A DNA stretch of 64,000 bases from Cyanophora paradoxa CCMP329 (lineage: Eukaryota; Plantae; Glaucophyta). Under the pieces are notes generated by a model that was not told where the DNA came from, searched no databases, and saw nothing but the letters and a program-made list of their open reading frames with translations. Where the stretch lies: NCBI GenBank assembly GCA_004431415.1, contig QPMI01000412.1:1-64000 (forward strand), in the 5' to 3' direction. The translations under genes and the position numbers were made by a program. Shown piece by piece: positions 1 to 39,780 of this stretch (position 1 is its first letter; the number at the start of each line of letters is the position of its first letter).

Positions 1-704
1 TCTTTCTGTGGAGGTGGTAATTCGTCCTCTTTCTTTTTGGGCTTCCTGTGGAACCGAGGAAATGCGAAATCTTTGACCAGATCCGCTTTATCAACATAAT
101 AGTTCACCGAATAATTTGCAGAAGACCACACAATATATTGGTAAGAGTGCACATACTCCTCAAACATCTTATAGAAATCGTCCTTGTTTCGCATGATATT
201 ATATTCCTCTTCAATGGCTTCGAGTTCTTTGCGATTGCAGCACTCAGGAACACAGCATAATCCGAATTTACTCGAATTGTTGAAGAAATCCTCAGCTTCT
301 GTGTGATGCAGATAATCGAGATTTTCGAATGGCGACCTCTGGAATAAAGAGTCCCACGATTTTGTCTCGGGTCAAATCAATGATTTCGTTGTCTATTAAA
401 TCATCTAAGACCACACACAGGTGATTGACAGGTTCCCTTTTTCGATTTTCTCCTGCCTTTCATCCAGTAATTTGGAAATGTAAGCAGCATCCCATTTCCC
501 GAGTTGCAATGTTGCAACTGCATCCCAGAAATGATTGAAGGACGTCCCACTCACAACAAGAACAGTATCAATCTTTTTCGCATCATGCAGCTGTTTCAAC
601 CAATATTTCACACATTCTGACTTGCCTGTTGCAGACTTTCCTATGAAAAGAGCACGAAATGGTGGGTTATCATCTCAGAGGCACAAACTTTCTAAATCGT
701 TCAT
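1..704 (-). pseudogene. A32/FtsK-family viral genome-packaging ATPase, frameshifted with one in-frame TGA
   Basis: Joining frames gives PPFRALFIGKSATGKSECVKY (Walker A, 618-641), HLCVVLDDLID (Walker B) and YSRGRHSKISIICITQKLRISSTIRVNSDYAVF (GRH, hhhhQ and IRxN motifs typical of A32-like ATPases). Confidence 0.88.
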
Positions 705-2110
705 GGCTTTGTAGATCTTTCTTATTAAAGATAGATAAAAATAACGAAACGTTACTGATAATGGTTTTACAGATTAATGCGACAACCATCTTGTCAACAA
801 TAATGAAACTGTGCATGAGAGCACGAACATTAACTGTGATTGTCTGGTCAGAAGGCATGTATAGAGTGAGGAAAGAGGAGGAGGAGTTCGTGAGATCAAC
901 ATAGCCAGACTGGGCAATGTTGCGAATCGCTTTCTCTCCATCAACACAGAATGGTAGACCACTGAGGACATATTTGTCTGCAACCTTGTCCATTTGAGCA
1001 CTTGAAGGCATCCGCAATTAATTCGGCACCTTTGAGGAGAGGGATGGGCTCAGTAGCATAGAGACGTTGACCATTAATTTCAACAGTGAAAGTAATGTCT
1101 TTTGAGTTAGCATGCGTTTTAGACACTGTGGGAACCATTGAAACCATCAATACCTGCGGCATCACGAACTGAAACAAGAAGACCATAGACAAGACCAGAG
1201 ATCTGTGACAGGTTAATACGATTTGGTTGAGCATTGCCTTTTGCAGCAAATTGACACTGTCAACAAAACCAATATCCAGAGCAGGAATAGCCATACCAGT
1301 GGTCTTCACCTTCTCAATGACAGTAGCAAACAGTTCATCAGAAACATTAATAGCATGCATGTAAAGACGAGGAGAAGTGACTTTAATTTCGGGGTTGTTC
1401 CAGAATTGAAAAGTGGTGATTGTTGACCAACATGGGCAAGAGTAGCATTAGCAGTAGCACCAAGTCCATCATCCTCTGTCTTATCAGCAGCTGTTCCACC
1501 AACAACTGGAAGAGCACGACCACCATAAGAAGTCTCAACATAACCCTTTCCAGCATCCTTGAACCAGACAGTTACCACCATTTCTCCTGAGAGAGCACCA
1601 AGAGGTAGGTAGTGGTTTAGCCATGGGACTGGGATTTCACAAAAATGACCCACCAAGTCGGTTGGTTCCATGGGCAGGGATACCATGAACCATCCCATTG
1701 AACGCTTCTTCTTGGCGAGTTGATCCTCACTGTAATAGATAAGAGGGAAATGAGCAAGGAAATCAGAAGGCACTGAAAGTGTAAGATCCATAGGTGATTT
1801 CAAGTCGAGAGACAGAGCACCAACGGCGAACGTATCCATTGCGAACAAGGTCGGTATCACCAGCAAAAGTGACAGCTGGAAGGTCAAACGCAAGTTCGAG
1901 TTTTTCCACAGAAATTGTAGCGAGGGAGCTTGAAAGAAATCGATTTTCCAGCATTATTCTCGAAAGTGTGCTTGGGTCACAACAACAAGAACTGGCTTCG
2001 ACTGATCAAGACCAAGCATGAGAGAGTTGTCCAGGAAGAACGCCTTGGCTTCTTCCGGGGTTGTTTAGAGCTTCTTTCAGAGAAAGACGTGAGGTCGAAG
2101 TAATATCCAT
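670..2110 (-). pseudogene. Double-jelly-roll major capsid protein, NCLDV-type, frameshifted (~460 aa reconstructed)
   Basis: Consecutive ORF pieces give KLELAFDLPAV...RLEITYGSY...PSDFLAHF, FCEIPVPWLNHYLPLGALSGEMVVTVWF, VEINGQRLY and LPFCVDGE...QSGYVDLTNSSSSFLTL...VNVRALMHSFIIVDK. These follow the order of NCLDV MCP motifs (LxVxLP, IPLPFW..LPLxAL, LNGxDRF, YSFAL..QPSGxxNFS, VYAxNYNxLxI). Confidence 0.75.
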
Positions 2111-2239
2111 GATTATCTCTTTTATTATACTGCAACATAAAAATTCACCAATGATCCTTGATTTTACGCAAAACTCGCAATTACAGGATAAGATGGATGG
2201 GTTTCCGCCATCCTCCTCTTGAAATATTCATACACAGGA

Positions 2240-3152
2240 TCACCAGCAGGTTCTCACCATATCGAATTCGAAGGTGAGGTGCACAGGTTGACCTTCGAAA
2301 TCAATTGGTTCATTAATTGCATTCACAATGTCAACCGAAAATGTGGAGAGCCCAGATTCTTGTTATAGTATTTATAATCGGATGGGCTTCTGTTGAATTA
2401 TAAACGACATGCTCACCATAATCTTTATCAGGAACACGATTTTGGGAAATATCCAGTGAGGAGACCATCACCACATTGCACAAGATCACCCAGCTCTTTT
2501 ACTCTCACAAATAGGACACTATCCCTGGTCTTCTCGGGTTCAAATGAAGATATATACCATGCACCATCGACCCAGTGAAGATACCATCAGTAAGAGTATT
2601 ATAAACCTGAGATTGGATTGGTGTGTTACCATATCTTCCAGGATCAAGACAAGCAGTCGAGCAGAACTCAAAACTCTGAATCTGTGCCTGGGTTGGGTTA
2701 TTGCGGTTGAGAAAGCCAGGTAAACGGTATGGTTGAATGGAATATAACTCGTTTCAGTGTATCATCCATTTGCAACGAATAGCTACTGCTGGTCTCTCAA
2801 TGCAAGTTTGGAGTTATTACATTCACAGTTGTTGGTGGTTTGAATGGGTGTGCTGCGACTTATCACAATGTGTTCCATGATTCATAATCAGCAGCAGGTC
2901 GATCAGTTGGAATACCAGTGCTTCCTGCACCAGAAAGATATTCAGACCAATAAGGTAGATGCATTATCAATTGTCACATCTCCTACTTTGGTTCACCACT
3001 CACCATGGGAATCTGTTATAGAATTCTGCTGAGACCAGTCTCACTGCTCTTACAAATTCATATGTGCTGGGGAGGCGAGCAATAAAACTCGAAGTAGGTC
3101 CATCTCCCGAAATTGTATTGAAAGAGCTCACTTCAATGTAATCCACAGGCAT
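2240..3152 (-). pseudogene. Minor capsid (penton)-like protein 1, frameshifted
   Basis: N-terminus MPVDYIEVSSFNTISGDGPTSSFIARLPSTYEFVRAVRLVSAEF and C-terminus LSTFSVDIVNAINEPIDFEGQPVHLTFEF match the single-jelly-roll penton patterns (..LP..Y.NV..IxLxSAEI; I.L.D..G..hDFxG...hTLEF). Confidence 0.72.
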
Positions 3153-3179
3153 CTTCTTTTATCTATAAACATATATTAA

Positions 3180-3991
3180 ATGATTCGGCTGGTCAATATA
3201 GATAGCAGAGACCGATCAGATGGACAAATAGAAACTCCTACAAAGTTTCACTCACAACCCCAGTGACCAAACCAAGAGAATGTCGAGTTTTGTATGCAGA
3301 GATCCCCAACAGCATCTATAACTCCATTGGAACAGACCACCTTCTTGTCAGATTCTACTACCAAGGCATCTCTGAAACCAGCAGGTCTTCCTTCTCCAAG
3401 TGGTTACATAAATCAAGGTCATTTCGGGTCACCACTCCATATAATTATGGTCTGAATTTCACATTTACTGGGAGCAACAATCTCACATATGCATTCAAGG
3501 TCTACTACAACCTACCTCCTACAAATTGGAGTTTACAGTAATGTTCAATTCGATATGGTTGCATCTACACAGAGATTGGGTAACTTCTTGGTGGAGTTCA
3601 GTGGAGTGGGTGGCTTCCACTGAACAGATTTACGATTTCCCAGAGTCTGCAAGGTCTTTATATGCCCCGAGAATTTCTTTATTTTTCAGGAATACCAATC
3701 ACCCCAAACCATCCCCAATGGGGAATCACATTCACAGGATATGAATTCGAGGCATCTCGCTTAAACTACAAGTTAGAAGCATCCAGATGACAGATATGAA
3801 TGCAGAACAGTATTTATACATGCACATTAAAGAACTCTCCCCATTTGCTACAAACCACAATATTGTCCCAAGATCACAACCACAGAATCAAGGCGATTCT
3901 CAGATTGCAGTTAAGTAAAGATATTGGGCAGTATGTTTATCACAGTGGAGAGCACAGTGAATACATAAAAATAACGATCGAAACCTTGTGA
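3180..3991 (+). pseudogene. Minor capsid (penton)-like protein 2, frameshifted
   Basis: Starts MIRLVNIDSRDRSDG and after a frameshift continues TTPVTKPRECRVLYAEIPNSIYN. The IDSRDR...AEIPN signature is typical of penton-like proteins of PLVs and NCLDVs. Confidence 0.72.
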
Positions 3992-3999
3992 TTAGAGAG

Positions 4000-4379
4000 T
4001 TAACAGTTGAGTTTCGCGATTATTATGGTGATCTTGTAGATATGATGGAATTGACAATCATTCCAGTTAGAGTTCTTGGCTATTGGTAATGATTTAAACG
4101 ATCCTGATAGAAGAACTCCCCATCTGTTCGAAAATATTAAGAATGGACTCTTTCGATCTTCTGTATACCATCGGCGAATTGTCTTATCCCATTTAGCACC
4201 ATTCTTTTTCAAGAATCTACAAAGAGTTGATCTCCTTGTAATTCGCAATCCCATCTCTTGAAAGATCTCATAATGATCTTGTATTCTTTCACAATCAAGA
4301 TGTAAGTCCCATGGAAATTGTGATATTGCTGGTTAATCGGCATGTTTCCTTTACAGCATGATGGGAAATCGTTTGTCAT
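4000..4379 (-). pseudogene. Small viral protein with a DUF5710-like motif, frameshifted
   Basis: FLKKNGAKWDKTIRRWY resembles the AKxxGAxWDxxxKxWY core of DUF5710. Confidence 0.5.
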
Positions 4380-4509
4380 TTTTGGCGAAACGAGAGTATC
4401 TCATGAGATAGATGAGAGAATAACAGGTGTGTTTTCAGGTTGGAGAAATCGGAGAAACATAGAGTATTGCGATTTCCGAGTTAGTTGACACTGAGAAATT
4501 CAGAATTTC

Positions 4510-4980
4510 AGATGGTCTTACTGAAAATGGTCAGATAATCGGGTGTGACACCTATTTAATTGACTGTGACGCCTCTTTAATTGACTGTGACGCTGTGACG
4601 CTGTGACGCCTACTTTCAAACTTTTTAAAATTTTCAAAAATGACAGACTTCTTAAAACAGCCGTCACAGCCGTCACAGGCGTCACACCCAATTAAAAATG
4701 GAATCTCTTTCTCTTACTGAGATATTCAAAAATATATTCTTGTCTTACTGAAATCCGTCTTGTGACACCTCTGACACCTACAAAACACTATCCATTAATC
4801 CACCTTTCCGAAAATGCGAAGTTGTCTTACTGGAAATGGTCTGCAATTTCGCTGTGACACCTAATTTAATTGAGTGTGACGCCTGTGACGCCTGTGACAC
4901 CTACTTTCAAACTTTTTAAAATTTTCAAAAATGACAGACTTCTGAAAACAGGCGTCACAGCCGTCACAGGCGTAACAGAC
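4510..4980. repeat. Two ~170-bp direct repeats, each with convergent TGTGAC/GTCACA arrays around an AT-rich core
   Basis: 4510-4688 and 4822-4980 share (ctgtgacgc)n-ctactttcaaactttttaaaattttcaaaaatgacagacttct-(gtcacag)n. The motif tcttactg recurs six times between 4516 and 5030. Confidence 0.9.
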
Positions 4981-5090
4981 ATTCCACCCCTCTTACTGAC
5001 TTTCTCAAAAACAAAACTATCTCTTACTGAATATCATTTGAATACTACCTGTCACACTTGATCTCAATTATTCTGTTTTATAGAACATAT

Positions 5091-5336
5091 GCAATCTCAT
5101 CGATTGTTTAATTGGACATAATGCAACTCAGTGACAGTTTTTCGATGCAAAAATGTTCATCAGCAATCTCATCGATTGTTTAATTGGACATGATGCAGTT
5201 CCGATATATTCCAATAGAAAATCGCGCAATCTTCTCAATTGTTTAATTGGACATAATGCAACTCTGTGACACTTTTTCGGTGCAAAAATGTAAATCCGCA
5301 ATCCCATCGATTGTTTAATTGGACATAATGCAACTC
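5091..5336. repeat. Four copies of a ~39-bp subterminal repeat (GCAATCTCATCGATTGTTTAATTGGACATAATGCAACTC)
   Basis: Copies start at 5091, 5163, 5226 and 5298. Spacers 1 and 3 resemble each other, giving a dimeric period of ~135 bp. Confidence 0.9.
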
Positions 5337-5668
5337 TGTGACAGTTTTTGCGTTTTCCGATACAAAATGGGCGGTGGTCTACTTCAATACCGATGAGATA
5401 TATCGAGTTTATGCGAATTTATGCGAATTTATGCGAATTAATCGCGATTATATCGTTCTTTAAGTAGTTTAATGTTAATCAATCGAAGTTATATATGTAA
5501 TCGACAAAGAACATAATCTATCGATATAATATCGATTGAATCAATCGTGAATATGCATTAAATTAAACGCGTTTATCATTTTAATACAAAGTTTGCATTA
5601 ATTTATACAAAGTTTGCATAAAAAGTTAAAGAAATTAATCGATAAATATGTATTTTTGTATTAAATTA

Positions 5669-5763
5669 ACACATATTGAAAAACGAATTTAAATCCAGAG
5701 TGAATCGAGATCGCGAAGCGATCGAGATGAACGAGGGATTTAAATTCGTTTTTCAATATGTGT
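5669..5763 (+). other. 95-nt terminal hairpin at the virus/host junction
   Basis: Perfect 28-bp inverted repeat (5669-5696 / 5736-5763) enclosing a symmetric 39-nt core a-GA-gt-GA-atc-GA-gatcgc-GAA-gcgatc-GA-gat-GA-ac-GA-g. Confidence 0.92.
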
Positions 5764-6015
5764 CGGCAGCGCCTGGGCGACGGGGGCCCGAGGTGGGGCG
5801 GCCGCAGGAGGGGCTCTTCGGAGGCCGGCCCGGGGGCCTGGACGGTGCGGGCCTTCGCGCTCCGCATTGCTGGCGGCGAGAGGCCACGGGCACGATTGCA
5901 AGGGGGGAGGGCGCTGTGCATCTCGTGCGGGGGGTACGGCAGCGCCTGGGCGACAGGGCCCGAGGTGGGGCGGGAGGCCTAGGGGCTCTTTGGAGGCCGG
6001 CCTGGAGGCCTGGAG
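5764..6015. repeat. Imperfect GC-rich direct repeat (~75 bp, period 173) flanking the viral end
   Basis: cggcagcgcctgggcgac..gggcccgaggtggggcgg..ggggctctt.ggaggccggcc occurs at 5764 and again at 5937. Confidence 0.75.
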
Positions 6016-7747
6016 GCCTGCAGCTGGAGCCTGGCGGGAGGCCCATCCTCCGAGGCTCCATCTCCCCCCGCTCACGGGAATAGAGTAAACTTTTACTTCT
6101 TGAGTACTTATTCACAAAGAGGGGCGGAGGGAGACCAATAGACGGGCGAGGGGGTGGGGGGGGTGGGGAAGGGGGGAGGAGAAGGGGGAAGAGCCAACAA
6201 ACCGCCACCGCCGCCAAGGGAGCGCGTGAGCGCCGCCCGCCCCTTGCCTGCCCGCCGGCTCCGCGCCGGGGCCCTCCCCAGGGAGGCCCGCGGGGCCCGC
6301 TCGCTAGGGCCGACCCCGCCGCCCGCCCGGCGCGCGGCGCACCTGCGGCGGGCCCCTCGATCGCCGCCGGCCGCCCCCGCCAGCGTCGCCGCGCCGTCCC
6401 GCACCTGCCGCGTGAGGAGCGCGCGAGCTCCGCCCCGCCTCTCGCCCGCCGCCGGCCCCGCGCCGGGGCCCTCCCAGGGAGGGCCCGCGGGGGCCCGCCC
6501 CCTGCTGGTGGCGCGGCGGCGCGCGTCGGAAATCCAGGCGCCGGCCGCGCTGCACGGTCAGCGGGGCGCGGTTTAGAGCGGGCGGGCGGGTTTAGAGCGG
6601 GCTGCGCTGGCTTGAGTTATGATCGGGCGCGCCCGCTTCGGCCCACGGGGCCCGCGCCCTAGGGCCGGCCCGGCCGCCGCCTGGCGCGCGGCGCACCTGC
6701 GGCGGGCCCCCCAATCGCAGCCGGCCGTCGTCGCCAGCGCCGCCGCGACGCCGCGCAGCTGCTTCGCGGGAGTCTACAATCAGGCACGCCCCCTGCGATC
6801 GGCTGGACCGCGGTGCGGCGCGCGGCAGCGTCCGGGGCTGCACGGGGCGGTCAGCGGGGCGCGGCGCAGAAGAGGGCTCGGGGGACGATGAACGTGGATT
6901 TGAAGAGTGCGCAGAGCATTGATGTGGTACGCGGTCGGGCGCGCGTCGTGCGGCGCTGGCTGCAGCGGGGCGAGCGGAGTCGCGAGTGTCAGCGAAGGAG
7001 CTCGAGACGACGGCGCGCGCGGCGCGGGGAGTGCGCGCGGGGGAGGACGAAGCGTACCGCGGTGAGAAAGTACTACGCCGAGTGCGTGTGCGAGAGGGCG
7101 AGGCTGTAGGCGGACGGGCCGGGGCGCGGGCCGGGACGCTGCAGCTGGCGCTCGCGGGGCCCCGCGCCTGAGAAGAAGACGAGCCGCGCGGGCTTTCGAG
7201 GACTTCGAACGTGCGTTTCAGGCTGCATAGAGACCGGAGAGCGCGTGCGGCGTGCGATCGCGCGGGATACGCTGCGAGCCGGGCCGCCTGGCCGCTGGCG
7301 GCACCGGATTCCCGGAAATCTCCTGCCGAAATTCCCGGACCTGGGCCGACCTGCTGCCCCCCCCCCTCCCCCCCTCCCCCCCCCTGGGCCCGTGCCTGCT
7401 CGACCTAGGCCGACCTGACCTAGGCACACCCCGGCGGCGGTTATTAGTATTTTACTGCCTATGTTAAGTTATCTGGTAATTTTGAAATCTTTTTAGGTTC
7501 TTTTTCAAACAAATATTAGCGCTGCTGCGCATGACGCCATTGATGTTTCCTTGAGTTTTTAGTACTGCAGCCCGAGTCAAAACGGGCCATATTTAATTTG
7601 GCACTGACGAAAACCTCGAGTCTCGATGTTCTCCGTTGCGCATTCCGTGCGGACCGTGCCTTCTCCTGATGAGCCCGTACAGACATATATATACTATGAT
7701 AATGTAAGTTTAACTTAAGTGCTGCTCACTCATTTATTACATATATC

Positions 7748-7882
7748 TTTTGAGAGACTACGGTGCGGGGACGCCGGCGCGCGCCGGCGATCGCGAGCCT
7801 CGGAGGCTGCCGGAGCCCCTTTAAATTTAATTTGTTTTGTGGAGCGAGCCCCCCGTAGCCTGGGCCGTAGGTAGAAATATTC
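7748..7882 (-). mobile_element. Short 3' end of the LINE-like family, with ~75 bp inserted into its hairpin
   Basis: ttttgagagactacggtg...gcgagccccccgtag...gtaggtagaaatatt matches the termini seen at 12833 and 58790. Confidence 0.6.
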
Positions 7883-10254
7883 TGTCTCTAGAGTCTAGAT
7901 TATAGACTAGATCTGCTCGGTACCGGTCTAGCTGGTTCGCTTATCGTCTCTTCTCGATTTGTCTCTGTGTCTTTCCTTTTTTATTGTCGATTCTGGCTTT
8001 TTTTTGTCTCAGAGTCTTGTCTTTCCTCGTGCTCTCGTCTTAGTTATTTTGCTTTTTGTGTCCCTCTGCCCCCGGCCCTGGCCATGGGCAGCCCCCGCAG
8101 TGCTGGCGTCTATAGAGACTGTGGCCGGTAATTCATCAAAACAAAAGGTAGAAATATTAAAGGATATGTCACAGTGTTTGTGGACGTCGCATTGCAATTG
8201 GTACACCACGGCACATGTACCAATGTTCTACTTGACGTGCCCTTCCGACCGATCAGCTAGCTAGCCGAAGATGCTAGCTAGGTGCCGGCCATGGGTCGCT
8301 CAATATGGGAGGTTCGCCTGAGTGGGGGAGACATGGTTTTCGCAGATATCGATAGCCGTAAACTTTGAAACCATGCATATGTCTCCCCCACTCAGGCCAA
8401 CCCTTGCGCACCCTTCCCTCCCCCACCGCCCGACCCCGCCCGCCTCGAGCCCGCCTTTTAAAGGGCAAGCTTAAGACGCGACCCCCCCTCTCCCCTCCCC
8501 CATGGCCACATGCACGTTAAGCCCTTCCCCCCCTTCCTCACCCCCTCCCCTCCTCCCCCCTCCCCCCCCCCCCCCCCCCGCCCCGGTCCCTCTCTGCACG
8601 TTCTCCATATGCATCAATTTCCTCAACCGACCCCACCCCCATCCCCCACCGGTACCCCCATCTCCCCACCACCCCATCCTCCGGCCTCGAGCTCCTTTAA
8701 AACTTTCCGAAGGCGCCTTTACTAGTTAATTTGTGGAACATGAAAAGCGACCCCGGACCGCCCCCGGCGGCCCCTGGCCATGGCCTGTGTGCATGCCGTG
8801 CCCCTGACGCCGACCGTTGAACGGCGCGGCGCGGCTCGGCTCCGATCGCGAGGGTTCTAGATCTCCGACCCGATTTTCGAGCTCCAATTGACGACCGAGC
8901 CCGTGGACCGCGGGCCCAATCGGTCGTACGAATAAGAGTACCGTAGTCGCCCAATCGGTCTATGATACCGTAGTAACGAGTACTCATTCATAAAAAGGTC
9001 AATTCGTAACAATGATGGCCCAGTGGACTTAAGGTTCTATTTTCTTTTTGCAATTGCAATCGACTCGGCGATCTCGATTGCAAAGTTGCATATGCGCATG
9101 CATGCGCAATTAATATCGGACTCGATGCTGTGTACACGTATACGTACATGTTAACGTTGGATAATCTTCGGAATGAAGATGCATATATATGAACTTTCGG
9201 AAGCGTCAATGTCGATATCGAAGCTGAAGGCCTTCCCCGAAGCCCAAGGCCGATATCGATATCGATATGAGAAGATTTGCATTAGCACACAACAACAGCT
9301 ACTAGCCATAGGGGTTTCGGAATTCACATTGCCCAACATAAACCTCTCCGACTGGGTTCTCAGTCTATCCGGCCGCGGGGACCGTCGAGCGCTGCGTTAA
9401 ATCCGATCTACCTTCGTATATCACGGCGATTATAGCCGGAGTTCTATCTAAAGTTGAGGCTACGGCCCGCCTTAAGCTTGCCGTACGACGTCGACCGTCC
9501 GACGGTCTACAGGAGGTGCTCGTTCGCGAAGAAATGGGCGCCCGCCTCGACCTCGATGGCCGCGAGCCCAGCGTCGTCCATCGCGGCGGGGCCATCGGAG
9601 TAAGCGTACGCGTCGGCGTCCGCTGCCTCCTCCTGGTCCGGGGGGGGGGGGGGGGGGTCGGCCTCAGCACTTCGAAGAAGGCCCAGCTTTGGGGGGGAAG
9701 GAGCGGAGCAGGCACCGAGGTGGGGTCGGCGTCGGCGCTGTACTCGTACACGCGCACGACGTTCGCGTCCTCGTCGAGCGCCTTGAGCGTCTGCACACGG
9801 CGCGCGCGCGCGCGATTAGTGATCATAAGTCAGCTTGCAATCCCCGGAACTTCGAATTCAGAAGCATCGATATCATGGCATAGATCGGACCGTATACGTA
9901 TGTAATCTATATATCTATAATCTATCGTACCAGGTCGCCATTCTGAAGCACAGCGATGGTGTTGGCATCGACCAGCCGTGTGATCCTCGGGCTGCATGCG
10001 GGCCGCGCGTATATATCAGTAACTCAAAAACAGAAGAGTACTACAGCTAGATATCATATATGTGCACAGTTGCAGCTTGATCGCGACAGCGCACCAAGAG
10101 TAAGAGAACAAGCCGGCAGCGCTAGAACTGCCCGTGGCTGGCAGACTCGTGAAGGTGCAGGCTGACAGTGGCGAGCCAGAGCCCGGCGGCGAGGTCGGCG
10201 ACCTAATCGGAAGCGACGCTCGCGATCGCTCAGTTATGATCATGTGCGCGCTCG

Positions 10255-11484
10255 TCAGTTGACATCGCGAATGCGAGGTACGCACAGGGTGCCCTTGACA
10301 ATCACTCCGTCAGTGTTCGCGTAGTACTGCTTGCTCAGATCTGCGGACATGCATATGATCAGCAATGCGTTCGGGGGAATAGACCAGAAAAATTGCCCTT
10401 TAACATTCATTTGATCAGACGACCGGCTGCGGGCCGGCGCACCACCCAGCGAGAGAGTCGAGGTCTTGGTGGTGCCACTGAGATCATTGCAGGTGGCGGA
10501 GACAGAGGCGTCGCCTTGATTCAGTACGTGCATCGCGCTATCAGCAAGCAGGATACATAGCCGCGATCGAAAGCAACCCAATACTCCGCCCGCACGGCCT
10601 CACGCACTCATGTCCGCGCTGATGTTCGTGGTCACTCCGGTGCACTTTGCGAAGGTGTTGCCCACGGCGGCTTGCACGCTGAGTTGCACCGCCTGCGAGC
10701 TGCAGTTAGGAGATCTAGAGACCATAGATATCGATGTAGCAGCGCTAGCTGCGCATGCAGCCGCTGAGCGGATCATACGCGCGGATCCGGCCTCGGACCT
10801 TCGTCGGGACGAGCTTGCCGTCATCACCAACTTGGATGACAGATCCCAAATCGAGGCTTGATGAGGCGTTTGTGCCGGCCCCGCAATCGGCGGTGCCACC
10901 GTACGAGCCGGGCAACGTGCCGGTTATCTTGATGCCGACGGTCGTTCCGCTGAACGTTTGGGAGGCGAACTTGACCCAGTTCGGTGCACTCGTGGCGAGC
11001 GCAGAGGCGGCCTGAGTGCCGTCCACGGGGTCTGCGCATGCACATAGGACTTATTAGCTGAAAGGAAAACCATCCCAAGCGACACGGCCAGGCTGGAACT
11101 GACAACGCGTGACTTGCGGAAACGTTCCAGCGATGACCACGCCCGGTCCTAAGCCGGCAATAAAACTCCCGGCGTTAGGGCACAAGGCGTGTGAGTAGGT
11201 GTTCGTTGTGCCAGTGGCTTTCATCCATGCTAGGCCGTCCTGGGTCAAGGTGAACTTCACCCCGACATTGCTGTTGAGGTCTGCGCGCGTTGCACGAGTT
11301 AATTATAAATTACGCGACGGCTGTACGCATGCCTAGGCCAGGTGAGCGCACCGATGGAGGACGTGACGGTGGTGCCGTCGGCGGCCTTGCACGTCGCGTT
11401 GAGGATAGAACCCCATCGGTCCGTCGCATTCTTCTTCGTCAGGGAGATGCCTGAGCAGTTCGTGGTGTTGAACGGAGTCGGCAT
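10255..11484 (-). CDS. Cyanovirin-N homolog (CVNH)-like lectin, ~6 exons, three CVNH-type repeats
   Basis: gccATG start at 11484. Splicing (first intron 11351-11281, GT..CAG) gives PFNTTNCSGISL..ILNATCKAADGTTVTSSIDLNSNVG; KFASQTF..GTADCGAGTNASSSLDLGSVIQVGDDGKLV; NTFAKCTG..VSATCNDLSGTTKTSTLSLDLSKQYYANTDGVIV. Each matches the CVNH pattern F..TC...L.A.C...G....S.IDL...IGN.DG.L. Confidence 0.75.
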
Positions 11485-11680
11485 GGCGGATCCGGAGCTG
11501 GAGCTGTAGCTAGGCGATCAGCTGCAGCTGGACGTTCTGAACCGGCTCGCGATCGGCCGCGGGCGCGGGCGGAGACAACACTGTCACAACAGTCTGACAA
11601 CTGCTGTCACAGTGCTGTGACTAGCCTCGTACGCGTCGGCTTACCGTAGTACTACGGTACTGCGGTAGTAGTATACTGTA

Positions 11681-12343
11681 GAACTGGTTAATTTAGTACA
11701 GGAAAATAATTAGTACTTCGCGATTTTGCTCATTTTAGTGGGCGGGAAATATTTGGTAGGTCCGGCCAAACCGCTCCCTAGGGGCGTCAGCGGAGGCCCC
11801 CCCCCCGCCCCCCCCGCGCCCCCGCCGCTTAGCTTCCTCTGCGAGCACGGCAGCATTCACAGCCACGATCTCCTCCGCCTCCTTCACGCTGGACGCTTTC
11901 GATGGGTCGGGCGCCGGCAGCCCGCGCGCGCAGCATCGCGGGGTCGTTCAGCGCCACGGCGCTGCGGCTGGGCGGCATCTGCTTCTCCGGCAGACGTGCG
12001 CTCGACTCGCTCGCCTTCTCGCCTACTCTGCCAAAGAACGACCAGGCGCCCGCCAGCGGCCGCGCCTTCTGATAGACCGTCGTCGTGTCGGGCTCGGGCC
12101 AAGCTTAAGGCGTGGCTGCTCGGCTGGCCGGCCTTTCATCGCTGGAGCTCGGCGGCGACGCCTGGCGCTTAGCTACACGCTTGGGCGGCATGCTTTCCCG
12201 CGCTCAAGGCCTTTTCGAACGGTACCCCCCCCTCCCGCCTCTTTAGTGAGCGATAAAACTTTGTTACTTCGCTCAAAAATGTTTAGTACTATAAATATGC
12301 AGCCCACTAAATATTTCTGGTTCTCCAGTAACTTGCCCAGTTG
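11681..12343. mobile_element. Non-autonomous DNA transposon (MITE) with imperfect TIRs and apparent TA target
   Basis: TA|GAACTGGttAAtTTAgT...AgTAAcTTgcCCAGTTG|TA. Its right end (aaatatgcagcccactaaatatttc...ctccagtaa) recurs at ~14500-14540. Confidence 0.55.
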
Positions 12344-12452
12344 TAGACTCTAGTAGACTAGATATAGTACTCAGTGACTAGAATTTCTGCGGACGTACCG
12401 CTAGTACCGTAGTAGTACGGTAGTACCGGTCCGCTACACTCAGTGACTGTCA

Positions 12453-12772
12453 GGCTGAAATCCGGTAGGGCGTTTTTGGCCAAAGCTTAGCTAATCGCAG
12501 GTACTTAGCGCGTTTGCAGAGGTACCATTACATCATTACGGAACATGTTAGAGGTTTTACAAGCTAGCGAAGTGCGATTTGGTAACTTTCTTGGCGCCGG
12601 TATGGCCATACCGGCGCCAAGGCCAACTTCGCTAGCTTCAAGCAAACCTCTACGATGCTGCTCCTAGTAATTCGCTAGGAGTCGGACTAGTCCGAGTCGG
12701 AACTAAGCTAGCGACGAAAGCTTAATTATATAAGCTAAAACCGCTTAAGAAATCCCCTACCGGATTTCAGCC
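12453..12772. mobile_element. PIF/Harbinger-like foldback MITE
   Basis: Perfect TIR GGCTGAAATCCGGTAGGG, 3-bp TSD TCA on both sides, and a central perfect 32-nt palindrome cttggcgccggtatggccataccggcgccaag (12590-12621). Confidence 0.8.
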
Positions 12773-12832
12773 TCATCAGTGTGACACGTGCACTGTGTGA
12801 CACCGTGCCGGAGACGGAGGGAAATATTTAGT

Positions 12833-14480
12833 ATTTTTTTTTGAGAGACTACGGTGGGGCGAACCCCCCGTAGGTAGTGATATTAAAGACAACAAAGCAA
12901 TCACAAATCAAAGATACAGTAAACTAGCACAAAATATATACAGAATCAAGAGGGATCACGAGAAGGGACACGATCAGAAGAACGCAAAAGATAAGGAGAA
13001 CGAGCACGAGGAGAAGGAGTAGAAGAGCTCAAGGGCGTCGATGCAGAAGTACTAGTCACACTAGAACGACGAGGAGCACGGGGACGCAGCAAATAAGGAG
13101 AACGAGCACGAGGAACTACAGTCGAAGACGAAGATCTAGACGAAGACGACAAGACAGAGCTAACAGCAGAACTAGAAGACGTAGTCGCAGGAGGCAAAGG
13201 CGGTAGAACAGTAGGAGAGGCGAAACGTAGGACACCACTAGAGGGAAAGTCGAAGCTGGCGGAGTGTCTAAACGGAATCGAGATTGTAGAGTTGGTAAAA
13301 CAATGGACGGCTGAAGACTAATCTGAGGAACTGGGGACGACACGAGGAAAGGGCAGAGCTCGGGTGCAGACTCGGAATCGGCAGTATAAGAGGAGGGGCG
13401 AAACGCAAGCCAGTAGTGACAGGGAAGGCAGACGATGGGGCTGAACCAGGCGGGAGAGGCAAATATAGCGAAGTAGAAGAGAGAGAAGGGTACACACGAG
13501 GAACGTCACCATACACAAAATACTCGCTGCCAAAAACTATACGGTCTGACGGTCGCTGAAGATAAAGAGGCGGAACTGCCTGAGGGCTAACAGTGAGAGA
13601 TGGAGGAGGAAGAGGCAGAGCTAACGACAAAGGGAACGGAATCAAAGGTACAGGGAAGGCATGGAATACACGAGGAACTGGAAGGTGGAGGGGCCAGTGC
13701 TCCTAACTAACATCGATGAAGCATCTGATGGAGGTGACGGCAAAACAACTGAGGGTAAACTAAGTTGAGGTGAAGCGAAGATTGATACAAGACTATCATG
13801 AATCAAAGGGGGCCATGCAGGAACCGGCGGGCGAGGTGGATCTGGCGGGACAGCCAGAGGGGAAGCCGAAGGTACAGGAGAGGAAAGCCGCAGGCGCCGA
13901 GACACATGGACAGGGGACGGATCGGCATCGGGAGGCAAGGTTGAATTCGACGGAGACCGGGGGCGGCGGATTCGTGAAACGGAAGGTATCAGAGAAGGAC
14001 TAGGGGGGGGCAGGGAAGTACGGAGCCGCTGAGCAGGTGGCGACGGTGAGGGTGCAGGGGAGCGAATCCGTCGCAAAGTCGGAACAGGCTGACGGGGCTC
14101 GGCATATGTAGCCGCAGCTGCAGGAGCTGGAGCAAGCACTGGGGGTGCCGGATCCGGAGACTGGAGGCGGGGGCGCTGGGCAGGAGGCACAGGATCTGGA
14201 GGATTCTCTGAACTAGAGGGGGTTCGAGGTCGGCGAACGCCACGGGCATTAGCAGGATGTTTATCAGCCCGAACATGACGGTCACGATCAGCAGAAGACT
14301 GAAAGTTCTTCCCACAAATAGGGCATATTAATGTGGAGGCAGAAGCGGCGCTAGCGCTAGCATCGGCAGACGAGCTCAAACGAGAACTCGAGGGAGCCGG
14401 GACCGAAGCTGTATCAGCGCTAGCAGATGGCCTCGCAATGTGCTGAACTTGAGGATTCACGCCGACGCCATTAACTGTAG
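12833..14480 (-). mobile_element. Non-autonomous non-LTR retrotransposon derivative (N-terminal C2H2 zinc finger, no RT visible)
   Basis: The minus strand ends CTACGGGGGG-TTCG-CCCCACCGTAG-tctctc-A10. ORF 13642-14460 has CPICGKNFQSSADRDRHVRADKH followed by Pro/Ser-rich sequence. The element appears inserted in a deleted copy of the 11681 MITE. Confidence 0.65.
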
Positions 14481-15610
14481 CCCAAACACTTTTAGTTATA
14501 TAAATATGCAGCCCACTAAATATTTCCAGCTCTCCAGTAAGCGCTAGCTCACTGAGTCAACTTCTTCTCAATCACGATCATGCATATGAGCCTCAATGGA
14601 CTCCGGGAGACCGTCGGACGTCGACGAACTTCCGAATGCCCGGACTGAACACAGGTTATACAGCTCTAGATCTACCCGGTAGATCTCGCTAGTACTGTAG
14701 CCTGTAGGATGGCTTAACTTGCCGCGTGGTAAAATTGCCGAATTCGCCCAAAACCGGAATTGCTTTGGCAAGATATTGCTGAATCCATATTTCCGCTCTA
14801 TGGTCGGCTTGGAAAATACCTACCCCCAGCAACAATGCCGATGCTTGAAATTGCCGAATTCGGACTCTCGGCAATGCAGTTGAATGCACGCGTACGGCAA
14901 AATAAAGCGACGGTTTCAAATTAAAAGCCATCCTACGTAAAAAAAGTCGATTCGCGAGGAGTCAAGCATCGACGTACTCCGAGTCTCCGACTCTCCGAGT
15001 CTCCGATCGCGAGTCTCCGACTCTGCATGCCAATGATGCCATCCGATCGCCGCCGGGCCGAGTCGCGAATCGCGATCGATATCGTGGGCCTCGTGGGCCG
15101 TGCCGGGCTCGTGGGCCGAGTCGTGGCATCGACTCCATCCGATGATCGAGACCGTCGGACTGATGAGGATCGAGTGCCATCGACAGTGATCCGATGATCG
15201 ACTTGAGCTCGGAATCCAAGCCTCGGATTTTCGAGCCTCGGAGTTGGAAATGATCGGGTCACCGGGTTTTCGCCGACTTTTCGGACTTCCGGAACTTCGA
15301 GCTGAATTCAGAAGCTCCAGAAAGCTTCGGATTTGGGAATTTCCAGGCATATATACTAATCTGAGTTCGCTACTAATTATATAATACTAGTACTAGACGC
15401 CTAGTGATAGGCCTTTTTTTACTTAAAGGCTGATACTAGAAGCCTAGTAATAGGCCTATTTTCGCAACAAAAAAAAGCGGGCAATTTGTTTTAAAGCTTC
15501 CGAATCGAACAGATAATGTTTTTAGTAACAGGCTACTAACAGGCTAGTAACAGCCAGGTATACATATACGGTGATATATATACCAGGCGCAATTGCAAGT
15601 GCCGCGCAAC

Positions 15611-16242
15611 TAGGGGTGCGGCTTGACCGCCAGAAAGTCGGCTCAAGTCAAGCCAAGCCCAGGGCGCTCGCGGCCAAGCCAAGCTAAGCCGGCCGGCCGG
15701 CCCGGACAAGCGCTTGGCCACTTGGCCGGGTCAAGCGCTTGGCCCGGCTTGAGGCAAGCCGAAGGGGGGGTACACTTCCGCAAGCTTAAGCCCTCAGCGC
15801 CGCAGCGAAATGCTATAGCTAGAGCTTATTTTGTTTTGAATTCGAAAGAAACACATCTAAACACTGATCATGAGCTGATAATATATCGACTCGGCAAGCT
15901 CGGAGCTCGCGATCGCGACGCCGGCCGTCGGCGCGATATCGATGATACCTGCACGCTCTTCATGATCAGACTTCTAGATCTACATCCGGTCCGACGTTCG
16001 CGCGCGATGCCATCGATCGCAGGCACGCGCGCGCGCGTGCGCGCGCTACGTGCCGCGCCGGCTTCGAATTCGCTGCAGCTGCGTCGAAGTTTACGTACCC
16101 CCCCGCGCCGATCCCCCCTCCCCTGCCCCCCCCGGGGCCAGGGCTTGAGCCGGCTTGAGCCGGCCAAAAGCCGGTCAAGCGCTTGACCGCCCAGCCCGGC
16201 TTGAGCTTTGGCTCAAGCGCTTGACGGCAAGCCGCAGGCCTA
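15611..16242. mobile_element. hAT-family MITE
   Basis: 8-bp TSD CGCGCAAC (15603-15610 and 16243-16250), TIRs TAGG..TGCGGCTTG, and dense subterminal TCAAGC/GCTTGA repeats. Confidence 0.88.
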
Positions 16243-16747
16243 CGCGCAACTACCGTAGTACGTATACGGTTACTACGGTATACCGTACCAGCATCCGATG
16301 ATCATCGGATCATTGCGCATTGCGTACTACCGCAGTCTACCGGTACGGTGTTTGCCACGTTGCGCAGCTAATTTGCGCACTGCGGGCAGTCTGCGGCAGC
16401 CTGCAGGGCGCGGGCGGCTGAGGGCGGACTACCCTAGGTAGGGTCCAGGCCCCAGGGACCTCTACCGTGTAAGACTTAAATACCGCGTCACATATTAGCG
16501 CGTTCCAAAAATTTGGGCCCGATTTGTTTTTGGTGAATTACCGGCCACAGCCTCTAGTCTACTCCAGCGCTAGCACTGCGGGGGCGTATACAGGCAAGGT
16601 GGGACATGATCGAATCATCGGAATTTGGGCCCGATTTGCGCTTTACCGCGCTACCAAATTACCGCGTTCCATCGTCTTCGAAAATGTATTATTTGTTAGC
16701 AAAGGGGGTAATACTGCGCTACCAAATCACTGCATATATACAGCTGC

Positions 16748-16923
16748 GTTCTACAATCTCGATTCCGTTTAGATACTCCGCCATGCCAGCTTCGACTCTA
16801 GATCTCCCTTCTAGTGGTGTCCTACGTTTCGCCTCTCCTACTGTCCTGCAGCTGCCGCCTCTGCCTCCTGCGAGTACGTCTTCTAGCTCTAGATCTAGAT
16901 CTGCTGTTAGCTCTATCTTGTCG
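16748..16923 (+). mobile_element. Internal fragment of the same LINE-like element as 12833-14480, opposite orientation
   Basis: ctacaatctcgattccgtttagatactccgcc...ctagtggtgtcctacgtttcgcctctcctactgt...ctgctgttagctct is the reverse complement of ~13150-13290. Confidence 0.8.
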
Positions 16924-17201
16924 GGCCCGGCCGCGGCGGGGCCCGCGCCGTGGGCCGCACGCGTGGGCGGCGTGGCCCAGTGGGCCGGCGTGGCCCAGTG
17001 GCCCGTGGCATTATCAGTGATTCATCACTGAGTCACTGGCCGGGCATCAGTGGCATCACCGTGGCACGGTGGCACTGGCATGCATCATGATGCATGGGGG
17101 CCGATGATGGGGCGTTGACGTCGCCGAGTCGACGCCGCGACTCGACGGTCCTACCGGTAGGTCCGGTACCCCCAGGTACTTACGGTAGGCCTATTAGTAT
17201 A

Positions 17202-17452
17202 CCGTATAACACAATAATATGACGGGCACTTTACTATGTCGGTTCCAAATTATGTCGCTTCGGACGTGAAATAACGACATAATTTGGGACCGTCATAGTA
17301 GGGCACTCTCAGTGGTACCCCATACAATTTCACGCCCCATACAAGCCTGAAAATTTCATGACGACATAATTCGGTACCGTCATATTCCACCAAGAGAAAG
17401 GTCAAGTTTTATAACGACATAAATCTGTCAGCCATATTTTTGTGTTACACGG
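17202..17452. mobile_element. Tc1/mariner-pogo-like MITE
   Basis: TA|CCGTATAACACAATAATATG...CATATTTTTGTGTTACACGG|TA, with an internal repeated ACGACATAA motif. Confidence 0.75.
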
Positions 17453-17797
17453 TAGCCTAGTACTAGTACTAGTAGCTATACGCTCAGCGGCTAGGCCTGC
17501 GATCGCGCTCCCCTGAGTCCCGAAGCCTCCCGTGCGCATGCAAGTGTAGATCTAGAAGCACTTCCCGGTGTACATATCGGACCGGTAACACTACCGCTGC
17601 AGCCTGCAGCTGCGCGCGCGTGCTGCACGACGGGTGCGCGCCACGGCCGCCGGTACCGGTGCGACGTGTGCATGGGGGGCAGCCGCGGCCTGCAGTTGGG
17701 CCATGGAGCTCCGAGCTAGCTATAGCTATGTATTCGCGGCGAAGGCTCAGAATCGCGCCTGCACGCGTATGCTTGCGCGTACGACTGGCGCGATCGG

Positions 17798-20700
17798 ATG
17801 GCTAGCTATAGGTATAGACTTCTGCGAAGATTGTCGACGGCTGCGGTTACTTAGCTTTCTCGCTGTATGCATCCTCGCCCCGTGTTTCAGAGCGCCTCCG
17901 GATCCGTGGCTGGGGCCAGCGCATACACGCGTTCAGCGTGCGTCATGCTTCGCGGCCGCGGACCCCTACCCTGGCACGGGTGCGCGTGTATACGCACACG
18001 ATCGAGCTCGAGCGAATCTTAACACGCTAGCTGTAGCGACCGATCCTTATTGATCAAGCAGTTGCCTTGACTCGCGATCGTAATTATGAACTGTACATGT
18101 TGATCCGGCTCAGGATTGCGCTTCGGTGGCGCTGGCGCTCCGGGCAGAGCGCAGCCAGTTCCCCTCTCTTCTCTCTCATCGCCTTTCAGCATTGAGATAT
18201 GGCACGTCTTTCCATTTCAAAGCTCAAATCTTGCCAATCGCAATTGCAAGCTCCTCCTCGTGCTGATGAACCCGTCGTAGGGTCAAGCCAGACACTGACT
18301 TCATCTCCGATCCAGTAATCGGACGGCATATCGTCCAGTTCTCTTCCGCACCTCTAGATGTGTTCGGTCTCTATCGACCTGCTTTTGTAAGCTGCTAGGC
18401 TGCTTTCCTCCTCCCTTTCCACTACTATTAATAGTGATTTGTTCATTTGCGAAACCGCAGCGCATTATCGTTTGCCAGGCTGGAGAATACTGTAAGCCGA
18501 GTGGCTGGACGTCTTCGGGAGACACCGTCAAATCCTATGCGACTGGCGGATATGATTATCTTCCCGGCTACACGTCCTGGTTCTGGCAGTGCGACCTTTG
18601 CGGGGGCGGCGGCCGCGGCGGAGGCAATGATATTTGGGTGCAATTCGCTGGAGGGTACGGGTTGCGCGCGGGATCCTGGACGGTATGTGCAATTGTCTTT
18701 TGATTTTTTGTTCTATGTCGAGAGAAAGAAGGTGACCCTGCATCGCAGCATTTAGTGATCACTTGGGATGCGAGTGGGCTCATCTCGTTTTACAGAAACG
18801 GCAATCTTATCGGTTCTGTTCCTTACTACTTTTTTCCTGGCGCCCCACCATCCTTCACCTGGGACCTCCAATCCGCATGGATTGGAGGATCGGGAGACAA
18901 CGAGGATTCTTTTTTTTGGGTAGACCCATCTTTTGTCAATGGCTGGGTGTCCGGTGCGTGAAGCGGCGCGAGCAGCGTCTAGATATAGAGGTTTGCATTC
19001 CTTTGAGGCTCTCACTGTTATCGTGATCATGATCAGGCTTTCGTATGTGGTCCAAAGCACTCTCCTCTAGCGAAGTTGTCTCGTCTTACCAGGGCTCGGT
19101 CCCGTCCGGCCAGCGCCTCCTCGACCTTCGAATGGACCTCGCGGACTGCATATACACGCCCTCGCGCAACCTTCTCAAAGATCGATCGGGGTGCACTCGA
19201 GCTCGCACTCTATATGTGAATTCTAGGATTGCCATCGTCTTTTTTAAGCAATTGATATATAATTAAAAGGGCGTCAATTGCAAACTCGCAGGTACGGATT
19301 GCACACAGCCGTCGGCGTCGACATATCCCTCAGCTGCCCACTGCTCACTACACCGAACTACGGTCATCGTCATTAGGCGCCTTCACAATCGAATATATCT
19401 ATATGTTCACAATCGTGCATCAGGCGTATCGTTTGGCACGACAGGCGGCGTTCTCGGGCCTCGATCCATCTCCATGCCCGCCATGACTTTGGGCAGCCAA
19501 TCGAGCCTGGTCATTGAGTTTTGGCGCGTCTTTTTTGTCCAGCTGCAGATCCAGATTGTGATGCATATGGCCTATTGATATTCCGATCCCCGCGTGTTGT
19601 ACAGGATTAGACCTTATGCGACTCAGGTCAACGGAGCGAGGCTCCTGGATTTCGGCAATTATCCGACGCCCACACGGTTCAACGTGGACAGCTTGGTGCT
19701 CGTTTTCATGAGCTGTATGCGAACTCGAATCTAATATGAAAAAAAATCAAATTCATTTCGAGCGCAGATAATCTCTATGTGTCCATCGAGCTCTTGTAGT
19801 GTGAGCTTCAACGCTAGCGCTCTTGATCTTCTTGTAGCATATCCGAGACCCTCTGAGCTTGCCATCTTGACCACTACGGCCAGGTCGTTTCGGGAAGCTA
19901 TGCGCTCAGGATACAGATTTTTCAGGGGACGCAACAAGTTGAATCTTTTGCCGCTTTTCAAGGGTCAAGTAGTATAAAGGTGCGGAGAGTTGCGTTTCAG
20001 ACCTTGCCATCATTGTTTTTCTGCGTTGTTTATGCATTGTGGCTGCTCCCCGGCAGCTGAACACGTGGAACTACGTCGTGCTGTGCTGGAGGCCTCGGGA
20101 TGGGAGCGGAAACAGCGCATTCACGTCCTACTTGAATGGTCTCCAAGTTGATTCGGCGACGCGAAAGGCCATTCCAGAAGTGGAACGCTCACTGAACTAC
20201 ATCGGACACCCAAATGAGTGGGTGCGGTCGCTTAGCTCTGTGGTCGCGAGTCGTTTGGTTCCGAAATGAGACGCACGCGTGCGCAGGGACAGCCGCACTT
20301 GACGGGCGGAGTGCTTGCTGATCTGCGGATTTGGCGGGGCACACCGACATCTGACGATGTCGTTGAAAGCTACTTCGACTCCAGCGCTACCCGTTCTGGA
20401 ACGATGCTTCTCGTGTACCGGATGCGCGATTGCACCACCTCAGGGGTACCCTCTCTACTACACTTCGAATTTCCCGCTGCTGTCGACGTCTCCCCCGCAC
20501 CTTGAACTGACCACTAGGCGCGTTCATTGTTTCGGTTAGAACGACACAAGGAAGGTTAGGGACGACTCCGGCTCCGCGCGGCACGGTCAGATGGACGGCG
20601 ATGTGTCCGTCGTTTGCGCTGGCAGCCCTGCCACAAACCCGCTCAGCCGGCCGAGCATACGGTCCGCGGATACGACGGGCCCAGACAGCCTCGAAGCGGA

Positions 20701-38421: not shown

Positions 38422-38536
38422 CCATGGCCAGCGCTTCGCGGCCCAGAGTCCCGCCAGAAAAGCGAGAGCTGCGCGCGAAATTCGACTTCAGGCCGAGCTT
38501 AAGCCTTCAAATTCTACGAAAGCCCGCTGCGCTTGA

Positions 38537-39508: not shown

Positions 39509-39780
39509 CGGGCCCGGGGCGCGGCTGGCCGAACTCGGAAAGGCCCGGAAGTTGGGGCTGAAACACAGGGACGGGTAGAGGGCCACGCTTCGTTCGCAGG
39601 CCGCTCAAGTCACATCCTCGCCTCTCCGCCCCTCTCGCGCTCGAGGATCCGGAGCTCGTCAGTCGAGAAGAGCGGCACGGGCTCGCTCCCTAGCCGCGGG
39701 GTAGGCGCGCGGTCGTGTGACCCCAAAAGCTCTAGCGGCCCGCGTCCCGGCGGAGGGCGCGCAGTCGCAAGCGCGGCGCG

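Follow-up and report, generated by a model that had tools for sequence, protein, structure and literature searches.

What kind of element occupies the left edge of contig QPMI01000412.1, and how might it copy its ends? The stretch analysed here, called the window throughout, comprises 64,000 nucleotides; its host side belongs to a eukaryote with very GC-rich genes, and its first 5,763 bases had been read, in a preliminary description made from the letters alone, as an endogenous dwarf virus with a capsid module like that of nucleocytoplasmic large DNA viruses (NCLDV) and a hairpin-capped end. We analysed the right 5.8 kb of the element (window positions 1–5763) together with public short-read contigs, comparing contigs listed for 5 of 24 runs (X1, X2, X5, X12 and X15, of which X2 is dated 2012) with the window. 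Such contigs drop rare variants, which holds for every contig-based count and absence given below; as the single-copy unit for depth we used a divergent single-copy contig (57.9x in X1, 41.9x in X2 and 68.6x in X5). On balance, and with slightly more confidence than doubt, we read these bases as the right end of an integrated multi-copy element that carries the gene of an A32-type packaging ATPase and genes that likely encode capsid proteins; it is likely a Polinton-like virus (PLV) of a protist, and the hairpin at its end likely primes copying. The element is less exotic than first proposed, in that it works like, and probably is, an endogenous PLV with a terminal palindrome. New here are an ATPase from an unplaced clade and a strand-biased hairpin.

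The right end of the element coincides with a sharp boundary at 5763/5764, where GC content passes from 27% (5400–5763) to 73% (5764–6100), in agreement with the preliminary description. Contigs of X2, X5 and X12 have loose ends that depart from the element at 5763 or 5764 and run on into other sequences (among the 24 of 57 rows listed), and among these rows a mirror-oriented loose end is found at 5665 in the same three runs. A 57-nt contig across the junction (5737–5793) is identical to the window, with 0 differences, at 87x in X1 and 84x in X5; in X12, by arithmetic, steps in depth from 231 to 202.6 fit the same contig at 99x. The many flanks meeting at one base, together with this junction contig, show that the end is exact and that the element is integrated. 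Read inward, this end starts with AC and not with the 5′-AG that forms the termini of Maverick-Polintons, and the cysteine protease, rve integrase and protein-primed polymerase of that group were not matched in the part of the element inside the window.

One older run also shows the site without the element. In X2, a contig of 194 nt links 5764–5860 to a further unit of the 173-bp host repeat and bridges 5764 by 97 letters either way, and the depth at 5770–5797 (57.4) equals the sum of two other contigs (26.1 + 31.3). X2 therefore shows an empty form of the site, which may be an allele or, since a host contig also starts at 5764 in X1, X5 and X12, a paralogue.

Short-read depth further reveals a high copy number that the preliminary description had missed. 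Summed contig depth over 1–5763 is ~1,600–17,800 in three DNA runs, compared with 46–69 for single-copy contigs in X1 and X5. Exact contigs correspond to 20–36 near-identical copies of the genes (23 and 20 over 437–666, 36 and 36 over 800–1364) versus 46–48 of the hairpin (46 and 48), while a divergent subfamily, ~83% alike, counts 18 and 17 copies. The ratios are stable across runs, so chromosomal copies fit; free virus as the source of the depth was rejected, as the ratios are stable and the flanks differ. Run X15, whose RNA origin is a guess, covers the element with shallow contigs that speak neither for nor against expression. In X1, X2 and X5, a single-copy contig of 4.5–5.0 kb, aligned to 1260–1939, carries a capsid-gene relative that has diverged much further, which implies at least three subfamilies in the genome.

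The reading frames of the window copy are broken by many frameshifts, and the same contigs bear on their origin. The contig over 800–1364 shows 0 substitutions and 5 gaps in both X1 and X5, and five is also the number of bases wanting in a stop-free frame path; the contig over 4174–4419 (~24 copies) shows 0 substitutions and 2 gaps, and those over 437–666 (~23 copies) and 5671–5762 (~46 copies) show 0 differences. The single-copy host flank at 5846–6286 likewise carries 0 substitutions and 5 gaps. Gaps without substitutions thus occur in the element and the host flank alike, and the tested frameshifts have the look of assembly errors; section 7 of PMC10120064 describes the same artefact. We consider it quite probable that the family is young and largely intact and that the window's frameshifts are mostly assembly errors. 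A chimeric contig or a decayed relic would also account for a copy full of frameshifts, and for a junction contig that spans 27 + 30 letters on either side, under the 31-letter criterion, and that was not found among the X2 contigs. Both properties of the junction contig count against our reading, as do the 14 and 9 substitutions separating the window from the contigs over 2116–2478 and 2992–3510. Three runs nonetheless hold exact junction words at 84–99x, several further flanks meet the element at this one base, and the gaps on both sides of the boundary are free of substitutions, so that a chimera or relic is barely credible.

Next, we consider the structure at the end itself. The last base of the element, 5763, is also the last base of a 95-nt terminal hairpin, whose fold has z = -9.4 with 0 of 200 shuffles as stable, bearing out the hairpin that the preliminary description had placed there. 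What that description had missed is that every one of the seven mismatches (7/7) sets G against A, as G·A or A·G. In DNA, G·A pairs in tandem form a stable arrangement, while the complement strand would carry T·C mismatches in their place. PMC13037366 describes GCGAAGC, the sequence of the cap, as a DNA mini-hairpin of exceptional stability in which a sheared G·A pair closes the loop, and places related mini-hairpins at the single-strand origins of phages; in phage G4 they mark the sites of primase, and they withstand exonuclease. With all seven mismatches being G·A and the loop being GCGAAGC, the strand with the 3′ end (5763) is the one that would fold stably. This is so in two subfamilies, and a variant hairpin centre in other copies also has tandem GCGAAGC units on the same strand. 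The palindrome also appears in a single orientation: an X12 contig runs unbroken through 5661–5733 at the same depth as 5704–5762 (3698 vs 3655), and no flipped form was seen in the listed contigs, from which rare forms can be missing. Viral contigs gave 0 exact matches to the 21-nt core of the hairpin, and Rfam gave no match in the window. A G·A strand bias in PLV ends was not found in print by a search that left preprint supplements outside.

These features suggest a route by which the element may copy itself. It would be excised or displaced as a single strand. Folding of the plus strand in single-stranded DNA would bring its 3′ end at 5763 into pairing with 5669, ready for extension inward, and the plus strand, unlike its complement, would be stabilised by the GCGAAGC cap and by sheared G·A pairs. 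The 3′ hairpin would then prime the second strand of the excised genome, the A32 motor would serve to package the genome into capsids, and an integrase whose gene would lie to the left of the window would insert new copies, keeping the palindrome in one orientation. A 3′ end paired in this way with template behind it has, we infer, a self-priming geometry, and we regard the chances for and against a plus-strand 3′ hairpin able to prime as described as about evenly balanced. The hairpin and its one orientation favour self-priming over a covalently closed telomere, and since the listed contigs show one orientation only, both a closed flip-flop telomere and resolution of the adeno-associated virus (AAV) type are disfavoured.

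Several observations weigh against this route and against the strand argument behind it. The single orientation is the main difficulty for simple hairpin priming, whose terminal resolution would invert the palindrome. An energy model, which does not capture the stability of tandem G·A pairs, finds the two strands near-equal (-34.3 vs -32.9 kcal/mol), the G·A argument resting on general DNA chemistry, and the chance of an all-G·A pattern, ~1e-6 to 4e-6 if the mismatches are independent, is overstated, the seven not being independent events. Hairpin depth is 1.3–2x gene depth, which is ambiguous between one and both ends carrying the hairpin. Finally, no replication or integration gene was matched within the right 5.8 kb of the element, whose left end lies beyond the window; the preliminary description had likewise listed no polymerase or integrase in the window, and neither was matched among 17 element fragments in one scan and 15 in a Pfam scan.

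Protein priming is one alternative. An ordinary Polinton-like element would have long terminal inverted repeats (TIRs) and a protein primer, with the terminal dinucleotide repeat serving slide-back and the hairpin being an accessory origin structure. A short dinucleotide repeat does form the end of the element, as it does in protein-primed genomes, and protein priming fits the single palindrome orientation; the 1.3-kb repeat-rich end resembles the TIRs of PLVs as presented in the text of PMC12220804. Yet a paired 3′ end with template behind it would be directly extendable, whereas protein priming would need none of this; the palindromes of Halocafeteria elements go mostly with elements other than those whose family B DNA polymerase is protein-primed (pPolB), in the account of preprint 10.64898/2026.07.28.741278, and the window holds no pPolB. 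We judge protein priming unlikely. The contrast drawn in the preliminary description between hairpin ends and TIRs dissolves, as the same preprint's text reports palindromes inside TIRs, and the two are not real alternatives.

Alternatively, the hairpin may be a strand-specific signal in single-stranded DNA and not a primer: a landing site for primase, a recognition site for an HUH protein or integrase, or a shield against nucleases. A signal accounts for both the G·A strand bias and the fixed orientation without a resolution step, the mini-hairpins of PMC13037366 offer precedents in the primase sites of phage G4 and in exonuclease resistance, and HUH genes are reported in mriyaviruses (in the text of PMC11253617) and in about half of the 'Zoraviruses' (in that of 10.64898/2026.06.19.733378). 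A signal leaves unexplained that stem and element stop at precisely one and the same base, and no HUH or primase gene was matched in the part of the element inside the window. We hold a pure signal to be improbable and retain the priming hairpin as our preferred explanation.

The packaging ATPase is the best-defined gene of the element. A search with the fragment at 3–371 returned a single protein among 38 candidates, P0001, an intact protein of 261 amino acids with a PF04665 domain (84% identity over 64% of the query, E 4e-36), which aligns across several frames of 1–704 (tblastn 2e-88); the Walker A, Walker B and arginine-finger motifs are present in the ATPase alignment. The A32-type ATPase named by the preliminary description is thereby secured. 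In the Atlas, 10 of the 10 best matches having a family belong to Pox_A32 or its clan. A comparison with 1.84 billion representatives gave 1432 matches, four of them at E <1e-30, followed by a gap to 1e-21, and the close relatives are short Logan or ENA contigs. Loci of these close relatives were found in 0/40, 0/103, 0/316, 0/3 and 0/14 cases in successive searches, while a sister-clade alignment recovered 38/158 and 4/327 loci, all with ATPases 22–30% identical to the query.

A tree of 177 ATPases, comprising 145 of 157 proteins chosen by length plus 32 from loci, with no named references, places the query in a clade of 6/177 with support 0.95; the nodes below the six-member clade, at 0.3–0.7, are unsupported. 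The clade holds 0 of the 32 ATPases with known neighbours. Judged by its sequence, the ATPase belongs to a small unplaced clade. Of the preliminary description, the integrated small element of Varidnaviria type is supported by the A32 ATPase, the many flanks at one exact end and the junction contig, while the NCLDV-type capsid is not supported.

The candidate capsid gene is the difficult part of the module. The minus strand at ~770–2110 can be read through as 425 amino acids, with X at 9 breaks and no stop, and by eye we take its motif order to resemble that of double jelly-roll capsids in the NCLDV order. From size, position and motifs by eye, this gene probably encodes the major capsid protein (MCP), and the two divergent genes that follow are somewhat more likely than not pentons.

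Profile and sequence searches gave no significant match in support of this assignment, within the limits of a single error-laden query sequence. Pieces of 770–2110 found no capsid match in Pfam or in the Atlas search and reached a best E of 0.28 against PDB sequences; longer homologues of 1309–1953 numbered 0 among 2116 candidates, 0 of 10 stretches of the candidate matched viral contigs, and there was no match to 237 open reading frames and 25 clusters from loci L140–L181. We also built an NCLDV capsid profile from 54 capsids out of 139 loci of a motif scan, a set biased to motif-bearing capsids. Its hidden Markov model gave no score against six frames, and frameshift-aware alignment yielded 16.1 bits, against 15.9 +/- 1.8 in 150 shuffles. 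With hhalign, the 425-residue read-through reached a probability of 2.6% over 11 columns (score 25.4; best of 40 shuffles 26.5), and hmmsearch of the read-through with its X positions against NCLDV capsids found no significant score. Global alignment placed the candidate slightly above zero, without significance (z 1.9 and 1.3). The controls, four proteins resembling capsids from viral contigs L178 and L179 (17–18 kb), had z 2.4–7.9; these control contigs also scored in other tests (hhalign 48.5%; Capsid_N E 4e-6). The NCLDV-type capsid motifs of the preliminary description are thus unsupported: the read-through scores like shuffles where dwarf-virus controls score clearly. Single-sequence folds had predicted local distance difference test (pLDDT) values of 41 and 34, too low for structural comparison.

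The two control contigs, with L179:15091-16047 (minus strand) as the stretch singled out, merit description in their own right. Their capsid-like genes, which score against the NCLDV profile, lie near an A32 ATPase; the Capsid_N match is in L178, and L179 has a Pox_Rif match (E 0.009). L179 also has a weak match to the telomere resolvases ResT/TelK (E 0.0013, below the cut-off), and is a possible small virus with true hairpin telomeres.

The capsid results also bear on a dwarf member of the Nucleocytoviricota, mriyavirus-like, whose free genome would have covalently closed hairpin telomeres and would have integrated later. In its favour, 7 of the 8 Atlas ATPase rows listed are mostly labelled Nucleocytoviricota, the capsid motif order is NCLDV-like by eye with global z values just above zero, and the weak protelomerase match in L179, a 17-kb viral contig with an NCLDV-like capsid, suggests that such ends may exist in small viruses. 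Endogenous mriyavirus-like regions are, moreover, known in algae from what 10.1101/2025.04.19.649669 and 10.1101/2022.07.28.501842 present. Against it, the capsid has no significant score where the controls do, and no mriyavirus core gene other than the ATPase was matched in the right 5.8 kb. Closed mismatched telomeres occur as flip and flop forms, and only one form is seen here. The Atlas taxa rest on database labels, which, following the text of 10.64898/2026.06.19.733378, also cover PLV-sized viruses; the same source describes mriyaviruses as lacking integration genes, whereas this family has many precise insertions. We rate such a virus as quite improbable. A broader proposal, which we put forward tentatively and with more doubt than belief, is a still-mobile dwarf DNA virus lineage whose ATPase and capsid are too divergent to place, which may stand closer to giant viruses than classic PLVs do, and which would copy from a strand-specific hairpin of sheared G·A pairs and a GCGAAGC cap.

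The features of the element are collected in Table 1.

Table 1 Annotated features of the element and its host flank, with the basis of each assignment.
Feature	Position	Strand	Basis and details
A32-type (FtsK-HerA) DNA-packaging ATPase gene	1..704, cut by window start	-	Several frames; P0001 match, Atlas, contig
Likely double jelly-roll major capsid protein gene	770..2110	-	~445 codons in ~ten frame pieces; size, position, motifs by eye
Possible minor capsid (penton) gene 1, broken	2243..3152	-	End motifs penton-like by eye
Possible minor capsid (penton) gene 2, broken, divergent from gene 1	3180..4087	+	Start and end motifs penton-like by eye
Short reading frame	4090..4400	-	Weak DUF5710 match, E 3.6e-4, 20.6 bits, below 26.5 cut-off
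Subterminal repeat block A	4515..4981		Internally inverted unit present twice at a distance of 291 bp; tandem units of 8, 9 and 21 nt; families D3, D5, D8, D9, I1, I3; folds
Subterminal repeat block B	5086..5349		Four units of 63-72 nt; families D1, D7; self-BLAST
AT-rich spacer	5404..5668		10- and 21-nt tandem units; D11, D13
Terminal hairpin, 95 nt	5669..5763	+	Arms of 46 nt; outer stem perfect over 28 bp; 7 mismatches, all G·A (3+2+2); cap GCGAAGC
Host flank, GC-rich unit at 173-bp spacing	5764..6014		Families D4, D6; element sits at start of one unit

For the penton-like genes, scores stayed within shuffles both against one penton-like protein and against each other, and Pfam gave no significant score for either; no score confirmed the two genes that the preliminary description had called penton-like. 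It had missed the fifth frame, the short one at 4090–4400. An AT-flanked TCTA motif occurs only twice in 1–4450, at 735 (-) and 3162 (+), lying 31 and 18 nt before the start codons of the ATPase and the second penton-like gene. The motif resembles the late promoter of Cafeteria roenbergensis virus (CroV) that is used by mavirus, as told in PMC8547959; with 1.9 occurrences expected by chance, the count equals chance and the motif is a lead only.

Repeats do fill ~1.3 kb at ~4450–5763, as first described. Block B has the highest summed depth within the element, and the spacer exists in two variants among copies, ~32 and ~14 (X1 contig depth 1880 and 801). The ratio of observed to expected CpG is 0.55 in the coding part (1–4450), 1.41 in the terminal repeats (4450–5763) and ~1.0–1.1 in the host.

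In the host region, segmental duplications extend over 36825–59000: 37489–43583 recurs inverted at 52105–58064 (89%), and 36825–39727 recurs at 44352–47206 (85%). They carry a protein kinase gene in two copies, which we take to be VPS15-like. The host domain scan covered 30 frames. An intron-rich host gene at 25890–28395 (+) has cysteine-rich repeats like those of ephrin receptors or tumour necrosis factor receptors, and a 304-residue frame at 13642–14556 (-) with a C2H2-like motif, a proline-rich tract and a purine-skewed region found no Pfam match; we assume that it is perhaps the start of a non-LTR (long terminal repeat) retrotransposon. Summed X15 contig depth rises to ~30,700 in one bin only, 7210–7476, a C-rich run with no Rfam match, and this peak may be a repeat artefact.

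For the copying of ends in PLVs that have no protein-primed polymerase, hairpin priming was put forward in 2026 as an untested proposal (10.64898/2026.07.28.741278). The element gives a directional clue, a stable fold on the 3′-end strand in two subfamilies, and its tens of young copies with a possible insertion polymorphism offer a practical system for mapping ends. On the more tentative reading of a still-mobile lineage, dozens of near-identical, probably intact copies and one site that varies between DNA runs of older and newer date would make PLV hairpin priming directly testable in a cultured protist. The unplaced ATPase clade, in turn, adds a branch to the continuum from PLVs to giant viruses.

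Among known systems, the Mriyaviricetes and other NCLDV-like dwarf viruses share with the element a small size class, an A32 ATPase and endogenous algal copies (PMC11253617 and 10.1101/2022.07.28.501842, as far as their texts extend). Mriyaviricetes capsids give highly significant NCLDV profile matches in the PMC11253617 text, while the element's capsid gave none, and VLTF2/3, RuvC, HUH and Mriya48 were not matched in its 5.8 kb; on the one testable feature, capsid profile similarity, membership in Mriyaviricetes or NCLDV appears to fail. Parvovirus terminal hairpins, imperfect terminal palindromes able to prime from the 3′ end, are alike in function only. A functional likeness also links the element to the single-strand origin of phage G4, where a mini-hairpin is the origin signal (PMC13037366, relevant parts). 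Unlike either, the element has unrelated genes, flip/flop forms were not seen, and a Rep gene was not matched in the window.

Closer parallels lie among the PLVs, with which the element shares an A32-like packaging ATPase and many integrated copies with precise ends. Multi-copy endogenous PLVs are well known in protists (PMC10120064 and PMC12220804, in the sections concerned), and PLV-sized viruses with NCLDV-related capsid modules are known from the texts of 10.64898/2026.06.19.733378, PMC11253617 and 10.1101/2022.07.28.501842. The compact module of an A32 ATPase and likely major and minor capsid proteins (MCP/mCP), endogenous and in many copies, recalls PLVs including the NCLDV-related Zora, Zephyr, VC40 and Alpensee groups, and some members of Trimcap B likewise have the mCP in two copies (both as described within 10.64898/2026.06.19.733378). 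Unlike PLVs of the Zora, Zephyr, VC40 and Alpensee type, the element has an ATPase in a clade of 6 apart from the 32 context-known ATPases and a capsid matching 0 of the 25 protein clusters tested. If the host is a glaucophyte, a guess from its GC content and style of introns, the element may be among the 156 PLVs that Table S6 of PMC12220804 gives for this class or the mriyavirus-related regions found there (10.1101/2025.04.19.649669), going by those portions of the two sources.

The nearest likeness is to the endogenous PLVs and virophages of Halocafeteria seosinensis, for which the text of 10.64898/2026.07.28.741278 describes palindromes inside TIRs next to the target duplication, mostly non-pPolB replication genes with RVE integrases, and a hairpin-priming model. 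Compared by description only, the Halocafeteria palindrome is 52 nt long, was screened at <=4 mismatches and comes with no mention of strand bias in that text, whereas the hairpin here has 95 nt, seven G·A mismatches and a GCGAAGC cap. Both systems have tens of low-GC copies in a protist genome and a palindrome at the extreme end, the setting for which hairpin priming was proposed there.

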